Shown: one piece after another, positions 6,660-58,947 of the stretch
How positions within the stretch are numbered: position 1 is the first letter of the stretch
How the letters are laid out: every line of letters begins with the position of its first letter
Assembly: GCA_023436715.1 (NCBI GenBank)
Contig: JAEZIJ010000204.1
Location: 3,548 to 67,547 of the forward strand
Origin: Acidobacteriota bacterium
Lineage (GTDB): Bacteria; Acidobacteriota; Terriglobia; Bryobacterales; Bryobacteraceae
Direction of reading: 5' to 3'
Length of the DNA stretch: 64,000 bases
Program-made: the position numbers and the translations under genes
The notes under the pieces: generated by a model
What the model was told of the DNA's origin: nothing
The model's database searches: none
What the model saw: only the letters and a program-made list of their open reading frames with translations

Positions 6660-8453
6660 ATGAGCGCCAGGATGTCCATCAAGACGGTTGGCGTGCTTGC
6701 TGGCACACTGTACGGGATTTCTCTGTGTAACGGTGCCGCCGCTCCGGCGAAGGTATCTGGCAGCATAGCCGGGATGGTGAGCAACCCGTCGGGTATCCCC
6801 CAAATGGGGGCTACGGTATTTCTTTACAACCGCTTCGACCAGCTTCTGCAACGCTCCCTGACAACCGAGAAGGGCCTGTTTGGATTTGCGGCCCTCGCGC
6901 CGGGAGTCTATGCCATTCAGGTATCCCTGTCCAGCTACCTGCCCGCCCTGAAGCGCAACATCGTGGTGCAGCCGGGCATGCAGAGCCTGCTGAGCGTCAA
7001 CCTGGCGACCGTGTTCAGTTCCATCCAACTGGTCGCTGTTTCACCGGGTGACACGTCGCTGATGAGCGATGAATGGAAGTGGGTGCTGAGAAGTTCGAGT
7101 TCCACGCGGCCCGTCCTGCGGCTTCTGCCGGAACTCGGTCCGCCTCACGCGCCGCGCCGGGCTTCCACATCCGTGTTCTCCTCAACCAGGGGAATGGTGA
7201 AGGTCTCCGGTGGGGACCAGGGCTCGATACTGAGCAATGAACCAGACCTCGGCACCGCCTTCGCTCTGGCCACTTCTTTCCTTGGCGAAAACCAGCTTCG
7301 ATTCAGCGGAAATTTCGGGTACTCTTCAGGCTCGGGGCTCCCCACGGCCGCCTTTCGCACCAGCTTCCGGCGGGAGTTGGCCGGAGGCGAAGCTCCGGAA
7401 GTGAAAGTGACCATGCGCCAGTTGTACATGCCCGCGCGGGCGGGGACTGCGGTGCTCGGCGGCATGTCGGATTCGGCTCCGGTGCTGCGCACGTTGTCGG
7501 CCAGTCTGGCGGACCAGACGCGGCTTACGGACGATGTCCGGTTCGAATACGGGGCCACGTGGGATTCGGTGACCTTCCTCGACCGCTTGAACTACGTGAG
7601 CCCTTACGGGCGGCTGACGTATGATCGTGGCGACGGCGAGGTCTTGCAGATCAGCTACGCATCGGGGGCGCCGCCTCTGGATCTGCTCGCGCAGGAGCCT
7701 GGTAGCCGGATGGAGCTTCAGCAGGACCTCACGGGCCTTGCGGCATTCCCGAGAGTGAGTCTCCGCGGCGGTCGCGTGCAGGTTCAGCGCAACCAGAGTT
7801 GGGAAGTCGGCTACCGGCGCGGTTTTGAGTCTCTGACGTTCAGCGCCGCGCTGTTCAGCGAATCGGTCTCGAATGCCGCGGTCATGTCGACCGGATCACT
7901 CGGGTTCCAGGCTTCGCCGGATCTTCTGCCGGATGTATTCTCCGAAAGCTGGATCGTCAACGCCGGTCACTATCGCAGTTTGGGCTATGTGGTGTCCGTG
8001 ACGCAGAGACTTGCCGAGCACATTGACGCTTCGGTTGCGTTTGGCAGCGGCGGGGCGTTGGCCCCGGTCGGCGAACTCGAAGCCGGTAGTCCCGAGGAGT
8101 TGCGCGCAGCGATCCGCGAGAGGCGCCGCCATACGCTGACGATGCGGGTATCCGGACATCTCCCCCGCACCGGCACGCAGTTCGCAACGAGCTATCAGTG
8201 GGCGGACATGGCCTCTCTGACGCCGCAGCATGTGTACCTGACCCAGTCGATCGCACAGTCGGGTCTTGGCCTGAACGTGCAAGTGCATCAGCCTCTCCCC
8301 TATTTCGGCGGGCTCCCCGGACGGCTCGAAGCGACTGCCGACCTTCGGAACATACTCGAGCAGGGGTACGTGCCGCTCTACGCCGGCGTGCGCACCTCAT
8401 ACCTCATGCATACGCCCCGCAGCCTCCGGGGCGGCCTCAGCTTTATTTTCTGA
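6660..8453 (+). CDS. carboxypeptidase-regulatory-like domain protein with a C-terminal beta-barrel (outer-membrane type)
   Basis: N-terminal signal sequence. GSIAGMVSNPSGIPQMGATVFLYN..GLFGFAALAPGVYAIQV is CarboxypepD_reg-like. The protein ends in ..GGLSFIF, a typical OMP C-terminal aromatic. Confidence 0.7.
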   Translation: MSARMSIKTVGVLAGTLYGISLCNGAAAPAKVSGSIAGMVSNPSGIPQMGATVFLYNRFDQLLQRSLTTEKGLFGFAALAPGVYAIQVSLSSYLPALKRNIVVQPGMQSLLSVNLATVFSSIQLVAVSPGDTSLMSDEWKWVLRSSSSTRPVLRLLPELGPPHAPRRASTSVFSSTRGMVKVSGGDQGSILSNEPDLGTAFALATSFLGENQLRFSGNFGYSSGSGLPTAAFRTSFRRELAGGEAPEVKVTMRQLYMPARAGTAVLGGMSDSAPVLRTLSASLADQTRLTDDVRFEYGATWDSVTFLDRLNYVSPYGRLTYDRGDGEVLQISYASGAPPLDLLAQEPGSRMELQQDLTGLAAFPRVSLRGGRVQVQRNQSWEVGYRRGFESLTFSAALFSESVSNAAVMSTGSLGFQASPDLLPDVFSESWIVNAGHYRSLGYVVSVTQRLAEHIDASVAFGSGGALAPVGELEAGSPEELRAAIRERRRHTLTMRVSGHLPRTGTQFATSYQWADMASLTPQHVYLTQSIAQSGLGLNVQVHQPLPYFGGLPGRLEATADLRNILEQGYVPLYAGVRTSYLMHTPRSLRGGLSFIF

Positions 8454-12152: not shown

Positions 12153-12229
12153 GCGCCCGTAGCTCAGCTGGATAGAGCGCTTGCCTCCGGAGCAAGAGGT
12201 CGGCCGTTCGAATCGGCCCGGGCGTACCA
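12153..12229 (+). tRNA. tRNA-Arg (anticodon CCG), CCA encoded
   Basis: Hand-folded cloverleaf. Acceptor GCGCCCG/CGGGCGT; D arm GCTC-AGCTGGATA-GAGC; anticodon arm CTTGC-CTCCGGA-GCAAG; T arm GGCCG-TTCGAAT-CGGCC; then A-CCA. Confidence 0.9.
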
Positions 12230-28926: not shown

Positions 28927-30744
28927 ATGTCCTACTCCAACGTCCGCGCCCGCCTCGGGAAAGGCACGAACAATCTGGCCGAAGCCGGCGAATACCCGCT
29001 GACTCGGATCACCAACAGTTACATGCTGCTGGTGTCCCTCTACCGGGGGAGCTGGATCTGCCGGAAGGTGGTCGACGTGCTCGCCGAGGACATGTTGAAG
29101 CACATGCCGCGAGTCAAAAGCCAGGTCAGCCCCGACGCGCTCGACAAGTTCGACCGAGCCATTACGCGCACGGCTACGCAGGCGAAGCTGATGGAGGCGC
29201 TGAAGTGGGGCCGGCTGTTCGGCGGCTCCGTGGCGCTCATCTGTATCGACGGAGTCAAGGATCTCTCCGAGCCGCTCGACCCGGCCGAGGTGTTGCCCGG
29301 GAAGTATCGCGGCCTGATCGTGCTTGACCGCTGGACCGGGGTCTATCCCGATCTGGAGTTGATCGAAGATCTGAGCAGCCCGGCCGATTTTGGGCTGCCA
29401 AAGTTCTACCGGTGCGACTTGGGGGCCAACGGCTCGAGCATCAGAATCCACCATTCGCGACTTCTCCGGTTCGTCGGCCGCGACCTGCCTTTAGTCGAAA
29501 AGCAGTTCCAGAACTATTGGGGGATGAGCGAACTGGAGCTCGTCTTCGACGAGCTAAAGAAGCGCGATTACACCAGTTGGAACATCGTCAGCCTCCTGAG
29601 TCGCGCGCAGATCATGGCCATCAAAGAGCCGCAGCTTGCGCAGGCTCTCTCCGGCCTCGGGATGAAACCCAAAGCGCTGGAGATGTACCTCGCGCGCATG
29701 CAGGCGATCAGCGATTCCATGAACAACCAGGGCTTGCTGGCGCTGCCCGCGGATGGCGGAGTCGAGTCCACCTCGTACAGTTTCTCCGGCCTCGGGGATG
29801 TCTATAACACCTTCATGCTGGACGTGGCCGGCGCCTGCGAGATCCCCGTTTCGCGGTTGTATGGGCGCACCATCACCGGACTCGGGCAGAGCGGCGAAGG
29901 AGACCTCCAGGTCTACTACGACACCGCCGACCAGAAGCGTCAACGCGAGGTTGGGCCCCGGATCGAGAAGCTCTACCGGGTAATCGCAGCGAGCGAGTGG
30001 GGAGAGATTCCCGACGACATGGACTACGAGTGGCCGCCGATCCGCACCATGAGCGACAAGGACCGCGCGGACCTCGCCGAGGCGAACACCAAGCCGATCT
30101 TCGACGCGTTCAACGCTGGAATCATCGGCCGCAAGACCACCCTGAAAGAGCTTCGGCAGCAGTCTGAAATAACCGGAATGTTCACGAACATCACGGACGA
30201 GATGATCGAGGCGGCCGAAGACGACACCGGTCCGGACGAGATCGGACCCGTACCGCCTGAATTGATGGGCGATGTTCCGAAAGACCCGGCCGGCACCGCG
30301 GTTTCCAAGGGAGAGCTTCTCGCCGGGAAGTCCACGCGAGACGCGAAGCCGGAGCCCAAGCCCGCCATGTTCTCCGGGATTCCGGTCGCGATCGAGTATG
30401 AGAAAGGCTCGCGCCGCACGCTGCGCAATGACATTGGCCGAGTGGTGTACGACGTCCTGATGCAGCACGACTACGGCTTCATCCGCGACACGATCGGGCG
30501 CGACGGAGACGAGGTGGACGTGATTCTTGGGCCGCACGAAGGCTCGGAGCGCGTATTCATCGCCGACATGATCGACCTCGGGCCGGACGTGGACCAGCGG
30601 CAGGACGAAGACAAGGTGTTGCTCGGGTTCCGGTCTGAAGATGAGGCGCGCGCGGCATTCCTCTCGATGTACCCGGCCAATTTCCTGGGAGGGATGGCGT
30701 CGATGCCGCTGGCGGACTTCCGCCGTAACTGGCTTGGAGAGTAA
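28927..30744 (+). CDS. portal protein (DUF1073/HI1409-like) with a C-terminal pyrophosphatase-like extension
   Basis: Size, position after the terminase, and a portal-like body. The last ~127 aa carry HDYGFIRDTIGRDGDEVDVIL (see findings). Confidence 0.7.
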   Translation: MSYSNVRARLGKGTNNLAEAGEYPLTRITNSYMLLVSLYRGSWICRKVVDVLAEDMLKHMPRVKSQVSPDALDKFDRAITRTATQAKLMEALKWGRLFGGSVALICIDGVKDLSEPLDPAEVLPGKYRGLIVLDRWTGVYPDLELIEDLSSPADFGLPKFYRCDLGANGSSIRIHHSRLLRFVGRDLPLVEKQFQNYWGMSELELVFDELKKRDYTSWNIVSLLSRAQIMAIKEPQLAQALSGLGMKPKALEMYLARMQAISDSMNNQGLLALPADGGVESTSYSFSGLGDVYNTFMLDVAGACEIPVSRLYGRTITGLGQSGEGDLQVYYDTADQKRQREVGPRIEKLYRVIAASEWGEIPDDMDYEWPPIRTMSDKDRADLAEANTKPIFDAFNAGIIGRKTTLKELRQQSEITGMFTNITDEMIEAAEDDTGPDEIGPVPPELMGDVPKDPAGTAVSKGELLAGKSTRDAKPEPKPAMFSGIPVAIEYEKGSRRTLRNDIGRVVYDVLMQHDYGFIRDTIGRDGDEVDVILGPHEGSERVFIADMIDLGPDVDQRQDEDKVLLGFRSEDEARAAFLSMYPANFLGGMASMPLADFRRNWLGE

Positions 30745-53993: not shown

Positions 53994-54199
53994 TGTCCAC
54001 TGAAGAAGTTCAGACAGCATTGCTGAGAATCATCCTGGTGTGCCTCGCCGGGATGCTGCTCATGGGGCTCCTGTCTTTCTGGATGACTCCATCTTACGTG
54101 GCTGGCGCGCAGGTGACCTTCGACACCTTCAAGGAAATCTTGTTGGTCAGCCTGGGCGTGAAGGGAGGCATGGCGGTTCCGGGAGCGGCTAAGCCGTGA
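53993..54199 (+). CDS. putative holin
   Basis: 68 aa with one or two TM helices (LLRIILVCLAGMLLMGLLSFW). TGATG coupling upstream; overlaps the endolysin start. Confidence 0.45.
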   Translation: MSTEEVQTALLRIILVCLAGMLLMGLLSFWMTPSYVAGAQVTFDTFKEILLVSLGVKGGMAVPGAAKP

Positions 54200-54636
54200 A
54201 ACTCAAAGCGCAGTCACAACCGCCCGCGCAGCGCGAGAGGATGACCGAGCATTTCGCGCGGGAAGAGTTCGCGTGTCCATGCTGCGGTCAGGCGCCGATC
54301 GCCCAAACCCTCGCCTCGGCCCTGGAGGGTCTACGCGGCATCGTCGGAGTAGCTATCCGGATCAATTCCGGATACCGCTGCGAGGCGCACAACAAGGCCA
54401 TCGGCGGAGAGCCGCACAGCAAGCATTGCCAGGGCATCGCGGCCGACATCTCGGCCGAGTGCGGGTGGCGCAAACTCTACGAGGCAGCCCTCCGCATTCC
54501 CGCCATCTCCGACGGCGGGATTGGGTTGTACCCCGATTCGGGCCTCGGCTTCATCCATGTCGATGTGCGACCGCAGAAGGCCCGCTGGGCGCGAATCAAG
54601 GGCAGGTACGTCGGGATCGAGCAGGCGCTCGTGTGA
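54196..54636 (+). CDS. endolysin, peptidase M15 (D-Ala-D-Ala carboxypeptidase/VanY-like) family
   Basis: FACPCCG; INSGYRCEAHNKAIGG..SKHCQGIAADI; FIHVDVRP (H..D..H zinc ligands). Confidence 0.8.
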   Translation: MKLKAQSQPPAQRERMTEHFAREEFACPCCGQAPIAQTLASALEGLRGIVGVAIRINSGYRCEAHNKAIGGEPHSKHCQGIAADISAECGWRKLYEAALRIPAISDGGIGLYPDSGLGFIHVDVRPQKARWARIKGRYVGIEQALV

Positions 54637-54637
54637 C

Positions 54638-55066
54638 CTACGCGGCATCCCGAACGTCAATGGCAACGCGCTTGCCGAGCACGCTGAATGCCGCCTCGAT
54701 CTGATCGAGACGAGTATGGTTCTTGAAGTCAAAGAGGCGGTCTATCGTGGTCTTGGGGATGTCCAGCCGCCGGGCCAGTTCGGCCTTGCGCATGCCCGAG
54801 GCAAGAAATGCCATGTAAAGCTCGACCTTCAACGATATCATTGCGGGCAACTCGATCATGCGATACTTCTTGCCCTTCGGCCTGCTGGGATGAGGCACTG
54901 GCAATCCGCGGCGGATGTAGTACGCAAACATGGTGACCAGGGCGTCTTCGGCCATTTCCAGGGCATCCTGTTCGTTATCGCCTTGCGAGAGAGCTTCGTC
55001 CACGTCAGGGAAGGTCACGAGGATCTTTCCGCCGTCAACGGGCTCAAACACTGCCGGATACTTCAT
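54638..55066 (-). CDS. hicB: HicB-family antitoxin with a C-terminal HTH
   Basis: MKYPAVFEPVDGGKILVTFPDVDEALSQGDNEQDALEMAEDAL.. plus GMRKAELARRLDIPKTTIDRL. Confidence 0.85.
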   Translation of the reverse strand: MKYPAVFEPVDGGKILVTFPDVDEALSQGDNEQDALEMAEDALVTMFAYYIRRGLPVPHPSRPKGKKYRMIELPAMISLKVELYMAFLASGMRKAELARRLDIPKTTIDRLFDFKNHTRLDQIEAAFSVLGKRVAIDVRDAA

Positions 55067-55069
55067 GTG

Positions 55070-55249
55070 TCACTCTCCTATCCCGAGTTTCTTCAGAATC
55101 GCATAGTACGTGCCCGTCGCAATTTCTTTGGACGGGTGGCGCGGCATTTCAGTCCGCTTGCCGTTGTACTCGACGACGAGATGGCGCGTGCCCTGCTCGA
55201 ACGTGCATCCCAGCTTCGTCAGTTTCCGCTTAAGTTCGCTCGCCGTCAT
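55070..55249 (-). CDS. hicA: HicA-family mRNA interferase toxin
   Basis: Own translation: MTASELKRKLTKLGCTFEQGTRHLVVEYNGKRTEMPRHPSKEIATGTYYAILKKLGIGE (59 aa, below the track cutoff). It ends 3 nt upstream of hicB. Confidence 0.85.
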   Translation of the reverse strand: MTASELKRKLTKLGCTFEQGTRHLVVEYNGKRTEMPRHPSKEIATGTYYAILKKLGIGE

Positions 55250-55650: not shown

Positions 55651-56394
55651 CTACTCTCCCACCCGCCAATGAAAGTTGAACGTGACGTCGGCGGCCTTCT
55701 TCACCGGCTGCCCATTGCAGCTCGCGGGCCGCATCTTCCACCGCGCCAGGTTCTCGCGTATCAGCCGTTCGTACTCCGCTTGCCAGTCGAGCCCGCGCAC
55801 CACTGGGCCGGGCTGCACCTCGGCAGGATGGAACGAAACGGGCGTGACGCGGCCGGAATCGTCCACCACGATGCCCACCGTGATCCGCGCCGGTGGTCCG
55901 CGGCGGTCATCGGGTGAGGGCGGCTTGTATATCACAACCGGGTCTGAGCATCCGGGCGCCGGGCCTGGCTCCTGCCTGCCCTCCACGTCGAAGCGGAATC
56001 GCACCGCAGCCGCGACCGCCGTACGCTGGCCTCCGCACACGGCCGGCTCGAAGCGCGAATTCTCAAGCACGGCGCGGGCGATGGCCTTGTACACGTCGCC
56101 GTAGACCCCTTCCTCTGTGTTCCCGCTGATCCCTTGCGCCCGCAGCGCGCGCCAGCGGCCGAACGGCAGATGCGTGTTGAGTGTGCCCGTGATGCGCGGG
56201 ATTCCGGAATCGCCGATGACCACCTCGAAGTCCACGTAGTACGAGGCGTCCGTGAAATGCGGCGCGAGGGCCAGCGTGCGGACCACCGGCGGCTCGCAGT
56301 TCGGGCCGGGATACGTGACTCCGCGGATGTCCAGGGCTGTCGAATCGGCCTGAAGGATGGCCGCCGAGAACACGATCAAGGTCAATGCGCGCAT
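55651..56394 (-). CDS. secreted protein with two TonB-C-terminal-like modules
   Basis: Signal peptide MRALTLIVFSAAILQA. Two segments end in ..AAAVRFRFDV and ..AADVTFNFHW, similar to TonB_C beta-strand endings. Confidence 0.55.
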   Translation of the reverse strand: MRALTLIVFSAAILQADSTALDIRGVTYPGPNCEPPVVRTLALAPHFTDASYYVDFEVVIGDSGIPRITGTLNTHLPFGRWRALRAQGISGNTEEGVYGDVYKAIARAVLENSRFEPAVCGGQRTAVAAAVRFRFDVEGRQEPGPAPGCSDPVVIYKPPSPDDRRGPPARITVGIVVDDSGRVTPVSFHPAEVQPGPVVRGLDWQAEYERLIRENLARWKMRPASCNGQPVKKAADVTFNFHWRVGE

Positions 56395-56837
56395 TGCTCC
56401 CCTTGTTGAGATATCGCCGCCCGCGCAACCGTGCGGATGCCAGCCACGGACCGCACCAGCGCCCCGGTACGCACCGGACTCACGCCGATTGCATTGAGCG
56501 CCATCTGGATCCGCATGCCCGCCATGGCCAGTTCGAACTTCATCCGCGAGCGCACGAGCGCGCGGGTGAGGTCGGGACGGTCAACCGGCGACGTCAGCAT
56601 GAGCGCCTTGGCCGCACTCTCCAGGGAACCGTAGTCGCTCCGGACGCGCCGCAGAAGCGCCCGCAATTCTCGCCGGCACTCGCATGGCGTCAGCAATTCC
56701 AGCTTTGAAAGATCCCCGCCCAGTTCGGCCGGAAGCTCCTGTTGCCCTGGTACCGGACTGGACACAACCGCCCGCAACAGAAAGGCGAAGGCCCCGCCGA
56801 TTAGCGCGGCCCCGCCAAGCACCAGTAAGACCATCAT
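56382..56837 (-). CDS. N-terminally membrane-anchored hypothetical protein
   Basis: MMVLLVLGGAALIGGAFAFLL anchor. 13-nt overlap with the downstream gene. Confidence 0.5.
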   Translation of the reverse strand: MMVLLVLGGAALIGGAFAFLLRAVVSSPVPGQQELPAELGGDLSKLELLTPCECRRELRALLRRVRSDYGSLESAAKALMLTSPVDRPDLTRALVRSRMKFELAMAGMRIQMALNAIGVSPVRTGALVRSVAGIRTVARAAISQQGEQCAH

Positions 56838-56864: not shown

Positions 56865-56987
56865 ATGAGGATTCTGCTTGCTGCTATCACGTTTGCCCTG
56901 CTCGGCATCGGAACTTGGAGCGGCATGGTTGCCACCGGCGATAACCCGCCGCCGCGCTGCCCCCCGGTGTGCGAACGCGCCAACTAA
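56865..56987 (+). CDS. possible 40-aa signal-peptide-bearing Cys peptide
   Basis: Own translation: MRILLAAITFALLGIGTWSGMVATGDNPPPRCPPVCERAN. GAAAGGAG RBS 6 nt upstream. Confidence 0.3.
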   Translation: MRILLAAITFALLGIGTWSGMVATGDNPPPRCPPVCERAN

Positions 56988-57775
56988 CCCATAAACCCCA
57001 CCAGGAAGGCGTTCCTCTTATCGCTGCGGGGCGCCTTCCTGACTTCTGCCAGATTCCTCGAGAGTCGCCTCCCCGACTCCAGCATCCGATCGCACTCCTC
57101 TTCCGTGATGAGCGGCTCCTCCTCGTATCGCTCCCCCTCGGGCACGATTCCTAAGCACCAGAACACATAGCAGACCATCGTCAGGCCCACCAGTGGGAAC
57201 GAGGCCGCTACGGGCATGTCGAGGTTGAGCAGCACGAGCCCCGCCAACTGCGACAGGAAGTACAGTTTGAGGATGCGTATGTGCCGAATCACGTTGGCTG
57301 GCACGTTCATCTGGAATGACCGCAGGAACCCTGCTCCCAGAAGCAGAAACAAGAATACGATCCCAACGAACTGGCGGGCAAGGAAGACGATCCGCGGGGC
57401 ACCGTCCCATCCAATTACCCCGACGCTCTGCGTGGAGAGGACGGCCGCTACAGCGAGCACCACGAAGACGGCCGCCATCACTACTCCCCCACGTCCCACC
57501 CGGTAGAACTTCCCGAGCCTACCGAACGCAGCCAAGGCCACTACGGAGTAGACCGCAATCAAGAACGGCTCCGAGTCGAACCATTGGTGATTGTACTCTC
57601 CTGCCCCTCCGCGCCAGAGCGCTATCCGCTGCCATGCCGCGCTCGCCAGATTCACGGTTACCAGGAGGACTAACTCCCAGTACCGACCGGCGAGCCGGCG
57701 CCTGAACAGCAGCACTAGACACAGCAGTTTTACAGCGATGTTTGCGTACCAAAGGTCGAAGATGAATGCGTTCAT
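56984..57775 (-). CDS. polytopic membrane protein (263 aa, ~6-7 TM), third gene of the repressor operon
   Basis: Start at MNAFIFDLWYANIAVKLLCLVLLF (57775), sharing one base with the upstream stop. Hydrophobic spans throughout, with an acidic cytoplasmic tail. Confidence 0.65.
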   Translation of the reverse strand: MNAFIFDLWYANIAVKLLCLVLLFRRRLAGRYWELVLLVTVNLASAAWQRIALWRGGAGEYNHQWFDSEPFLIAVYSVVALAAFGRLGKFYRVGRGGVVMAAVFVVLAVAAVLSTQSVGVIGWDGAPRIVFLARQFVGIVFLFLLLGAGFLRSFQMNVPANVIRHIRILKLYFLSQLAGLVLLNLDMPVAASFPLVGLTMVCYVFWCLGIVPEGERYEEEPLITEEECDRMLESGRRLSRNLAEVRKAPRSDKRNAFLVGFMG

Positions 57776-58242
57776 CAGGCCGCCATTGGCTCCATCAGGT
57801 TGAGCAACTGGTTGATGTGACGGGCCTCTGAGTGCCCAGCGTTTCGGAGGGCCGCCGCGGGCAGTAGGGCCGCCCAGTGGTACCACATAGAGATCCCTTG
57901 CGCGGCCACTTTTCCCACACGGGACCATTGCCCAGAGAGCGGTACACTTCGCATCCCGCAGGCTATGCAGGATCGAATGTCACGGGCCTGCTCGGTCAAA
58001 AAAGCGCCCGGTGCCCGGTGGAAGTACGCGATGTGCAGGTCCAGGCGCGACGGTTCGCGCCTGTCGATTGAAATTACCCTGCCCGCCGACAAGCGTTCAG
58101 CGAGCGCCACTGTGCCCTCAAGCGCCTCGCTTGCGGCGAGGTATAGCTCGCAGAGCGCGATGATGTTCTGACGCAGATCCTTCTGTTCCGGGGCTTCCGC
58201 CACCGCCCGAAGGCTCCTCAGTCTTTCTAGCACTAGCCTCAT
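57775..58242 (-). CDS. soluble hypothetical protein (155 aa), second gene of the repressor operon
   Basis: Track ORF. GC3 favours this frame over the overlapping tail of the RHH ORF. Confidence 0.6.
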   Translation of the reverse strand: MRLVLERLRSLRAVAEAPEQKDLRQNIIALCELYLAASEALEGTVALAERLSAGRVISIDRREPSRLDLHIAYFHRAPGAFLTEQARDIRSCIACGMRSVPLSGQWSRVGKVAAQGISMWYHWAALLPAAALRNAGHSEARHINQLLNLMEPMAA

Positions 58243-58558
58243 CTGTCATTCTCTTTTTTCGGAGTCGCACTACCCCCAGAATGCTCCGGACACTCCCCCG
58301 AGCGATTTCGATCGCCTCATTGTCCTCCAGGGCTGCAAGCTCATCAATGAGCCGATGCAGCTCTTGGACCTTAGGGTCTCCTTTGCGGTCCTGTGCGATA
58401 GTACTGGCTTCCCCTGCTGGTACTGGTCGTGACAGATAAGCGTTCCACATTTCCCGAACCAGGTCGCGGATCGTAATGTCGCGGTCCACTGCTGCCCGCT
58501 TGATCGCTCTTTTGTCCTCTTCATAGACGGTCAGTGAGAGGCTACCCGGTTCTGGCAT
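58118..58558 (-). CDS. ribbon-helix-helix (CopG/Arc-like) putative prophage repressor
   Basis: LSLTVYEEDKRAIKRAAVDRDITIRDLVREMWNAYL is a beta-strand/helix/helix RHH pattern. It diverges from the operator array. The last ~40 codons have poor GC3. Confidence 0.65.
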   Translation of the reverse strand: MPEPGSLSLTVYEEDKRAIKRAAVDRDITIRDLVREMWNAYLSRPVPAGEASTIAQDRKGDPKVQELHRLIDELAALEDNEAIEIARGSVRSILGVVRLRKKRMTDEASARKTEEPSGGGGSPGTEGSASEHHRALRAIPRRKRGA

Positions 58559-58581
58559 GAATTTATTTTTCCTTTCGTTTC

Positions 58582-58651
58582 AGACGAATACGCGTCTTTT
58601 GCGAGACGAATATGCGTCTTTCTCAAAATTCGTCTTGACGAGTATTCGTCT
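58582..58651. promoter_or_regulatory. three-site operator array, consensus AGACG-N6-CGTCT, in the divergent immunity region
   Basis: AGACGAATACGCGTCT (58582-58597), AGACGAATATGCGTCT (58604-58619) and TGACGAGTATTCGTCT (58636-58651). TTGACG (58635-58640), 17 nt, then TACCAT (58658-58663) could be the rightward promoter. Confidence 0.65.
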
Positions 58652-58689
58652 TTCCGTTACCATTCCAACTGTGAACTGGTTAACGGAAC

Positions 58690-58947
58690 ATGCAAGCCGA
58701 TAATAGCAAAACCGAAATCAAGGCAGCGCAGAAAATCTTCGCAGCCAACCCCGGTTCGGCATATCAGCTCGCCAAGGAACTTGAGGACGCCCTCGGCTTC
58801 TGGCCGCTGCCGCTCATCTCCATGATTCTCTCGGGGGCGCGGCGCGGACGTTCCGGCAAGTCCAAGACGGTCCTGGAGGCGATCCTGAAGCGCGCCTCTG
58901 AAATCAAAGACCGCAAACCACGCTCTCCAAAAGCCAGCAGGAGTTGA
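58690..58947 (+). CDS. first gene of the rightward early operon (Cro-position), hypothetical
   Basis: Track ORF of 85 aa, starting 39 nt after the third operator. Confidence 0.55.
   Translation: MQADNSKTEIKAAQKIFAANPGSAYQLAKELEDALGFWPLPLISMILSGARRGRSGKSKTVLEAILKRASEIKDRKPRSPKASRS

Follow-up and report, generated by a model that had tools for sequence, protein, structure and literature searches.

A conserved four-gene cassette pairing a seven-helix membrane protein with a convergent secreted-peptide gene at the putative lysogeny switch of a prophage

The 64,000-nucleotide stretch of contig JAEZIJ010000204.1 that we analysed (hereafter the window, 64 kb) carries, beside the putative lysogeny switch of a prophage, one copy of what sequence comparison identifies as a conserved, previously unannotated four-gene unit. 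Its core consists of the gene for a 155-amino-acid protein (open reading frame (ORF) 155, ORF155), the gene for a membrane protein with about seven transmembrane (TM) helices (the 7TM protein) and a small convergent gene for a secreted peptide; a DNA-binding gene lies directly upstream and, judging from the loci compared, is conserved in position. The three core genes are inherited together, the minus-strand genes are translationally coupled, and the proteins fall into no known family. We tentatively suggest that the cassette works like the SdpR/SdpI/SdpC system of Bacillus, as a peptide-linked membrane module, a reading that we place only slightly ahead of a prophage exclusion system of the lambda Rex or superinfection exclusion (Sie) kind.

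Layout of the cassette

On the minus strand, the gene for a 146-aa DNA-binding protein resembling the ribbon-helix-helix (RHH) class (58118..58558), the putative switch repressor, is followed by ORF155 (57775..58242; predicted all-helical) and by the gene for the 263-aa 7TM protein (56984..57775). ORF155 starts 125 nt within the RHH reading frame, and its TGA shares one base with the ATG of the 7TM gene (TGATG). An earlier note on this DNA had pointed out these ORFs, the internal start and the junction, and all of them are present in the ORF list and the sequence. Its inventory of three minus-strand genes was correct as far as it went; it overlooked a fourth gene on the plus strand (56865..56987), which encodes the 40-aa secreted peptide.

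No terminator was predicted between the RHH, ORF155 and 7TM genes, whose start and stop codons overlap. The three are predicted to form a single transcription unit that is closed off by the opposing peptide gene, since the latter overlaps the 7TM stop codon by 4 nt; the convergent ends are so tight that terminators have little room. Gene order, the TGATG junction and the internal ORF155 ATG are all kept in the related phage contigs L001 and L003. By comparison with these relatives, by alignment and by codon-position bias in the overlap, we assign the RHH-like, ORF155 and 7TM reading frames as genes and not chance ORFs.

A convergent secreted-peptide gene at every locus with downstream sequence

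In the window peptide, MRILLAAITFALLGIGTWSGMVATGDNPPPRCPPVCERAN, a signal peptide precedes a Pro-rich stretch with a C-x3-C pair, and the ATG of its gene is preceded at 5 nt by AAAGGAG. A convergent small ORF lies 0-107 nt beyond the 7TM stop codon in 7/7 loci having downstream sequence. All seven have a strong Shine-Dalgarno (SD) sequence (AAAGGAG or GAGGAGG) and encode a signal peptide ahead of a short Pro/Gly-rich tail that evolves fast; from the signal peptide, export by the Sec pathway is predicted. Cysteines occur in six of the seven tails, usually within a C-x(2-5)-C motif; four tails have a C-x(3-5)-C pair, and L004 and L015 have four Cys. Examples are ...PPPRCPPVCERAN (window), ...PPPQCKPPDICFPAR (L001), ...GPFCPPFCSKGSR (L023) and ...GCNGPVCPE (L019). 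A C-terminal remnant of the peptide gene is visible in L002. In L007 (6843-7440), the 3' end of the 7TM gene and the peptide gene have been duplicated in tandem, which has produced a second, slightly diverged peptide ORF.

A small Cys-containing peptide with a signal sequence, encoded next to a polytopic membrane protein and evolving fast in its mature region, would also be expected of a bacteriocin-like lysogenic conversion locus, in which the peptide acts as a toxin to non-lysogens and the 7TM protein (with ORF155) confers immunity, without signalling to the regulator. The presence of several paralogous cassettes with diverged peptides in one metagenome sample (L004, L015 and L019; sample 3300041955) points in the same direction. 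The mature peptides, however, are hydrophilic and Pro/Gly-rich, neither cationic nor amphipathic, and Sec export in a diderm reaches the periplasm only, while no exporter gene is linked to the cassette. As the 7TM protein matches neither CPBP/Abi nor any other known immunity family, and as ORF155 would be left unexplained, we regard pure toxin-immunity as very unlikely.

The 7TM protein belongs to a large family with a possibly receptor-like fold

Hydropathy, the positive-inside rule and an AlphaFold2 (AF2) model built from a 50-sequence alignment (predicted local distance difference test score (pLDDT) 90.5, predicted template modelling score (pTM) 0.83) agree on about 7 TM helices in an N-out/C-in topology with a helical cytoplasmic tail of ~50 aa, in line with the 6-7 segments counted earlier. 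The exact number is somewhat uncertain because DSSP fuses TM2 and TM3 into one long helix. Close homologues are rare, with three among 5.8 billion clusters for the 263-aa protein and likewise three for ORF155. An exhaustive profile search retrieved a 7TM family of 175 representatives at E<=1e-3. All 150 family members listed are <=299 aa long, mostly 220-300 aa, and align along most of their length; none of these 150 carries a fused output domain, so output would need partner proteins.

When the AF2 model was compared with the PDB using Foldseek, the top matches were nearly all 7TM domains of G protein-coupled receptors (GPCRs), although weak (E 0.08-1, TM-score 0.4-0.5), and against viral models two actinophage membrane proteins came out on top (E 0.03-0.1). 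One family member gave a weak 7TMR-DISM_7TM match (E=0.004). The seven-helix N-out/C-in bundle thus resembles both 7TMR-DISM proteins and GPCRs, but the fold scores stay below significance (E>=0.08, TM-score<=0.5), and the cassette protein has neither an extracellular sensor nor a fused cytoplasmic output domain.

Sequence searches placed the protein in no described family. The 263-aa protein had no match in Pfam, NCBIfam, PHROGs or PADLOC, and comparing 50 aligned family members with Pfam, PDB sequences, PHROGs and PADLOC gave nothing significant or recurrent, only lone chance matches such as a single chance-level PADLOC match (Cas10_Id, E=0.0066) and one non-significant PHROG match at E=0.009. 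The family alignment likewise found only chance matches among PDB profiles. The earlier note had named a confident match to a housekeeping transporter or enzyme family as grounds for abandoning its proposal. Such a match appeared neither for the window protein nor for the 50 family members, and by these profile comparisons the 7TM protein cannot be recognised as a transporter or an enzyme.

Selection in the overlap acts on the ORF155 frame

Comparing the 125-nt overlap between the window, L001 and L003, we counted 19-26 substitutions at third codon positions of ORF155 versus 6-13 at each of the other positions. This concentration at its third codon positions identifies ORF155 as the frame under selection, and the RHH-like protein accordingly ends in an unconstrained extension of ~42 aa. 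The extension shows little conservation, and its end point differs among the three sequences. The N-terminus of ORF155 (MR..LE.L) is conserved even among chromosomal homologues, which places the start at the ATG at 58242; the gene call of one source (P0010) is 13 codons shorter. An in-frame A_AAA_AAG heptamer just before the ORF155 ATG (58259-58253, minus strand) raised the option of a programmed frameshift from the RHH gene into ORF155. This was ruled out: a -1 shift would meet a stop after 4 codons, ORF155 lies in the +1 frame, and L001 and L003 lack the heptamer, which is probably coincidental.

The window ORF155 matches its L004 homologue at a pairwise E=1e-7, and a family hidden Markov model (HMM) recovers all ORF155-like proteins. 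At E<=0.1, ORF155 had no match in Pfam, PADLOC or PHROG, and its alignment gave only chance matches to PDB profiles; the earlier impression that neither downstream protein belongs to a known family thus holds, with no meaningful match for either in Pfam, NCBIfam, PHROG, PADLOC or the PDB. The AF2 model (pLDDT 42) is unreliable and unfit for a fold search. The protein had been described as soluble, but the family has a Trp-rich hydrophobic C-terminal helix (Kyte-Doolittle 1.1-1.8), and ORF155 may thus not be plainly soluble.

A putative repressor facing a three-site operator array

The region between the RHH-like gene and a divergent Cro-like gene contains the proposed operator array (58582..58653), made up of three copies of the 18-nt GACG-N6-CGTC palindrome AGACGAATAYGCGTCTTT (58582-58599, 58604-58621 and 58636-58653), and an extra half-site (58628-58635). 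The three-site array noted before is therefore borne out: the pattern GACGNNTANNCGTC has three matches in the whole window, all of them inside 70 bp of this intergenic region. A sigma-70-like promoter on the plus strand (TTGACG-17-TACCAT, 58635-58663) overlaps the third copy and faces the Cro-like gene (58690..58947, plus strand, 85 aa). The latter heads the early operon, and its homologues in L001 and L007 have weak matches to HTH_3, P22_Cro and YdaS.

The RHH-like protein can be divided into an N-terminal part of ~35 aa, a conserved helical segment (residues ~33-100) and the last ~42 aa that overlap ORF155. Its N-terminal pattern, SLSLTVY-helix-helix, is compatible with the strand-helix-helix order of an RHH domain. 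Between the window and L001/L003, this N-terminal part and the operator sequence differ together, the operators of L001 and L003 being TAGGTATT-N6-AATACCTA, while the remainder of the protein is conserved. Such a joint change fits the pattern expected of an operator-specific repressor. The protein had no match in Pfam or NCBIfam and only chance matches in a PDB profile search. The designation RHH repressor thus draws on the sequence pattern and on the co-variation of N-terminus and operator, and profile support from Pfam, NCBIfam and the PDB is lacking.

A DNA-binding gene lies directly upstream at every cassette locus, RHH-like in phage copies and HTH_23 in chromosomal copies. The chromosomal regulators are 167-176 aa long, and their HTH_23 domain (a helix-turn-helix, HTH) scores 29.6 bits against a Pfam cutoff of 24.6. 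A C-terminal helix shared by both types of regulator had been proposed from a MAFFT alignment and weak pairwise signals; this was lowered to not established since reciprocal profiles fail, and an earlier positive HMM link between the two groups proved to be circular. In L011 (6886-7240) and L015 (~6900-7450), repeats of ~66 nt (translated RPRDALLPLPYGRGSATGETGF) occur upstream of the chromosomal regulator and resemble intergenic repeats of the repetitive extragenic palindromic (REP) type.

A small DNA-binding gene that sits directly upstream, is translationally coupled and varies in domain type by lineage while the downstream genes stay homologous is reminiscent of type II toxin-antitoxin operons. 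The cassette could accordingly be a toxin-antitoxin-like or stress module, with an antitoxin-type autoregulator and with ORF155 and/or the 7TM protein as a membrane-acting toxin or partner that stabilises the element. We rate this as highly improbable: there is no match to a toxin-antitoxin family, the unit comprises three to four genes instead of two, the 7TM family is large and its copies are intact throughout, and in the phage three operators facing a Cro-like gene resemble a lysogeny switch.

The cassette occurs in phages and, more often, in chromosomes

Genes for the ORF155-like partner (~150 aa) and for the 7TM protein (~255 aa) lie side by side and overlap by 1-4 nt in six separate lineages (window, L001, L004-6, L007, L015-18 and L019-22), and L023 probably represents a seventh. 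The two genes always occur together, and most of the homologues found sit in non-phage contexts. At the chromosomal loci (L004-6, L007, L015-18, L019-22, L011 and L023), each with an HTH regulator, an ORF155 homologue and a 7TM gene, the neighbours are housekeeping genes (serA/serC, TsaE, ilvD, Obg, TruB, GlmU and TonB receptors), and there is no prophage. The expectation that the pair would co-occur next to repressors in other prophages is thus borne out for co-occurrence and for the related phage contigs L001 and L003, whereas most copies are chromosomal. Some chromosomal loci keep further small regulatory genes, namely a divergent Cro-like gene in L007 and a small RHH-like gene in L019, with degenerate counterparts in L004 and L011; the chromosomal copies could thus derive from the immunity regions of mobile elements. 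Searches of INPHARED phages and PLSDB plasmids (blastn and tblastn) gave no match, 50,697 sequenced phages contained no homologue, and no relatives were found in three scans of IMG/VR or two scans of GTDB representative genomes.

In one phage lineage (L012-14), ORF155 is interrupted by an IS605 TnpB gene and a truncated 7TM gene of 84 aa remains, while the repressor has stayed intact; the ORF155-7TM pair is thus accessory to the phage, like rexAB. The TnpB gene (OrfB_IS605/Cas12f-like; L012 4914-6092, minus strand) is also present in L013, L014 and L009. The disrupted variant persists, being present on five contigs, of which the three examined come from three different samples. Another rearrangement is seen in L002 (620-735), which matches L001 at ~100% identity as far as the operator region and then enters a 7TM gene of ~70% identity. 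The RHH gene, ORF155 and the first ~37 codons of the 7TM gene are missing, and the Cro-like side is joined directly to the 7TM gene; L002 is either a recombinant or deletion mosaic or a metagenome assembly chimera.

These data bear on the idea that the cassette is a prophage defence. Lambda carries accessory genes downstream of its prophage repressor, in the order cI-rexA-rexB, and the earlier note took the locus in the window to be laid out in the same way. ORF155 and the 7TM protein, co-transcribed with the repressor in the lysogen, would then keep out superinfecting phages or abort their infection, for instance through a block to DNA entry or depolarisation of the membrane; the regulator would merely drive expression, and the peptide in the periplasm would either assist exclusion or have no part in it. 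The likeness, known here from the genes, is that accessory genes follow the repressor in the same orientation at divergent operators, with a partner first and a membrane protein second. Phage 434 offers a further precedent: a passage of PMC3564112 places its hex gene in overlap with the repressor gene on the same mRNA, much as ORF155 overlaps the repressor frame here. Other observations also support a defence role. The genes stand directly downstream of the candidate repressor, joined by start/stop overlaps with no predicted terminator between them, in a minus-strand cargo block of the prophage that also holds HicAB; the pair is dispensable to the phage; and intact cassettes in chromosomes without phage genes, except for the adjoining Cro-like/RHH remnants, would fit a domesticated prophage defence.

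The Rex analogy does not extend beyond this. Pfam and PADLOC libraries include models for RexA and RexB, and scans of the window proteins against Pfam, PADLOC and PHROG revealed no RexA or RexB homology. Whereas RexA has ~279 aa and RexB ~144 aa with 4 TM helices, the cassette encodes a 155-aa protein and a 263-aa 7TM protein whose fold may be receptor-like. The cassette occurs mainly outside phages, behind its own regulator and in housekeeping neighbourhoods instead of defence islands, and the strictly conserved convergent peptide gene is neither predicted nor explained by a Rex model. By sequence comparison, then, the resemblance to Rex is positional only: the coupled layout of the earlier proposal is conserved and the pair is accessory to the phage, while Rex homology was not found and protein sizes, topology and distribution differ.

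Membrane proteins that block superinfection at the inner membrane offer a second model; they include the prophage-expressed Sie2009 of lactococcal phages and the Imm/Sp system of T4, in which a small envelope protein accompanies a membrane protein. SieA of P22 is portrayed in a passage of PMC10883804 as a prophage-expressed inner-membrane superinfection-exclusion protein. The cassette differs from SieA, Sie2009 and Imm in that homology is absent (the 50 family members had no significant PHROG match), the 7TM protein is much larger and possibly receptor-like in fold, and the distribution is chromosomal. Given the absence of matches to PADLOC, Pfam and PHROG families and of homologues among sequenced phages or in IMG/VR, we consider a Rex- or Sie-like exclusion role a serious but rather unlikely explanation.

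An Sdp-like reading of the cassette

In B. subtilis, sdpRI and sdpC combine an autorepressor and a polytopic membrane protein for immunity and signalling in one operon with a convergent secreted-peptide gene (PMC2910880). In a passage that cites Ellermeier et al. 2006, the same source gives the mechanism, which has been demonstrated: the peptide-bound membrane protein sequesters the repressor (PMC2910880). The cassette shares with this system an adjacent convergent secreted-peptide gene, at all seven loci with downstream sequence. The DNA-binding gene directly upstream of ORF155 is a candidate autoregulator, RHH-like or HTH_23 and not ArsR/SdpR-like. By analogy, the peptide, once exported, would target the 7TM protein at its periplasmic face, either as a ligand or as a toxin. 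Receptor and/or immunity functions would fall to the 7TM protein, assisted on the cytoplasmic side by ORF155, and peptide occupancy would be relayed to the regulator and so to expression of their own operon; in the prophage, this regulator would double as the candidate lysogeny repressor. Peptide binding, a complex of ORF155 with the 7TM protein and any effect on the regulator are all steps that we infer from the analogy.

Several observations weigh against an Sdp-like mode of action. SdpI, SdpR and SdpC share no sequence homology or confident fold homology with the cassette proteins, and the likeness is in layout only; neither the window proteins nor the 50 family members match Pfam SdpI or ArsR. 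The cassette membrane protein has ~7 TM helices versus 6 in Sdp, and the cassette differs further in its extra ~150-aa partner, for which the Sdp system has no counterpart, in its short hydrophilic peptide, in its likely diderm host and in that one of its copies sits at a prophage switch. The hydrophilic mature peptides are unlike known membrane-active toxins, the L007 peptide has no Cys, and in a diderm a Sec-exported peptide of 2-3 kDa probably stays in the periplasm. Since the disrupted variants in L012-14 retain the repressor, the ORF155-7TM pair is dispensable for repression. The regulators raise a related difficulty. Pairwise signals between the phage and chromosomal groups are weak (E=0.002; hhalign E=0.003, probability 9.8%), and with reciprocal, non-circular profiles neither group finds the other. 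Because their homology is not established, the regulator may be an interchangeable autoregulator rather than the target of signalling.

A more specific version of the Sdp-like reading would give the lysis-lysogeny switch a route through a membrane receptor: a disulfide-loop peptide made and exported by the prophage itself would be sensed in the periplasm by the phage-encoded 7TM receptor with ORF155 as adaptor, and the RHH-like repressor would be titrated or released at the membrane. We judge this particular circuit to be distinctly improbable.

Prophage setting and neighbouring genes

The locus had been assigned to a prophage, and the window indeed contains genes for a terminase, a portal, a tape-measure/lytic tail protein, a baseplate hub and wedge, and an M15 endolysin (54196-54636). 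Positions 1-12 kb are host flank, with GWxTD, CarboxypepD_reg/TonB-receptor and MFS genes and a tRNA-Arg gene, a combination suggestive of an Acidobacteriota-like diderm. This tRNA-Arg(CCG) gene (12153-12229, plus strand) marks the border between host genes (a PALP enzyme, GWxTD, TonB receptor and MFS) and the first phage-like plus-strand genes, and it is the likely integration site. A search within the window for a repeat of the tRNA-Arg region, which would mark the right attachment site (attR), found nothing, and the window contains no integrase gene; because it holds neither attR nor an integrase, the prophage probably reaches past the window. The portal gene (28927-30744, plus strand) encodes an unusual fusion of Phage_portal_3 (E=1.8e-94) with a C-terminal InPase (inorganic pyrophosphatase-like) domain (E=9e-24).

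Between the endolysin gene and the repressor block, on the repressor strand, lies the HicAB cargo (54638-55249, minus strand), with a 59-aa HicA toxin (Pfam, 39.5 bits) and a 142-aa HicB-like antitoxin with a C-terminal HTH domain; a sigma-70-like promoter (TTGACT-17-TATCAT, 55284-55256) is located ahead of it. At higher coordinates lies a gene for a 247-aa secreted protein with a weak TonB_C match (55651-56394, minus strand; 23.5 bits, just below the cutoff), which overlaps by 13 nt the end of a gene for a 151-aa protein with one N-terminal TM helix (56382..56837, minus strand). The 151-aa protein is kept only in the phage lineage, with a counterpart of 144 aa in L001, and the TonB_C-like gene is not conserved in L001. 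Both were dismissed as cassette members, as they occur only in phage relatives or are missing from them. Two of the related contigs carry giant ORFs downstream of tail-fibre genes, with products of >5000 aa in L012 (7466-16534, minus strand) and >3400 aa in L001 (12259-17373, minus strand); the L012 product contains SLT, 2'-5' RNA ligase and DNA polymerase III beta-clamp-like domains, and no ORF of such size is present in the window.

Implications

With four small genes and one operator region, the cassette is compact and directly testable. Either of the two main outcomes would be useful, be it a new prophage exclusion or abortive-infection system from poorly studied soil and peat bacteria or a peptide-responsive membrane switch acting on a phage repressor. 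If the cassette acts as a unit, its 7TM proteins would make up a new and fairly widespread family, with at least 175 clusters at 50% identity, whose members come with a constant partner and an exported peptide of their own. The 7TM family, its partner and the peptide are annotated in no database, and one branch sits at the lysogeny/lysis decision point of a temperate phage. Should the membrane-receptor circuit prove true, the activity of the repressor, in induction or immunity, would depend on a self-made peptide signal; the logic would be arbitrium-like but realised with wholly different components in a diderm, probably acidobacteriotal, host, and in chromosomes the same peptide-receptor-regulator circuit would exist in host or domesticated form.

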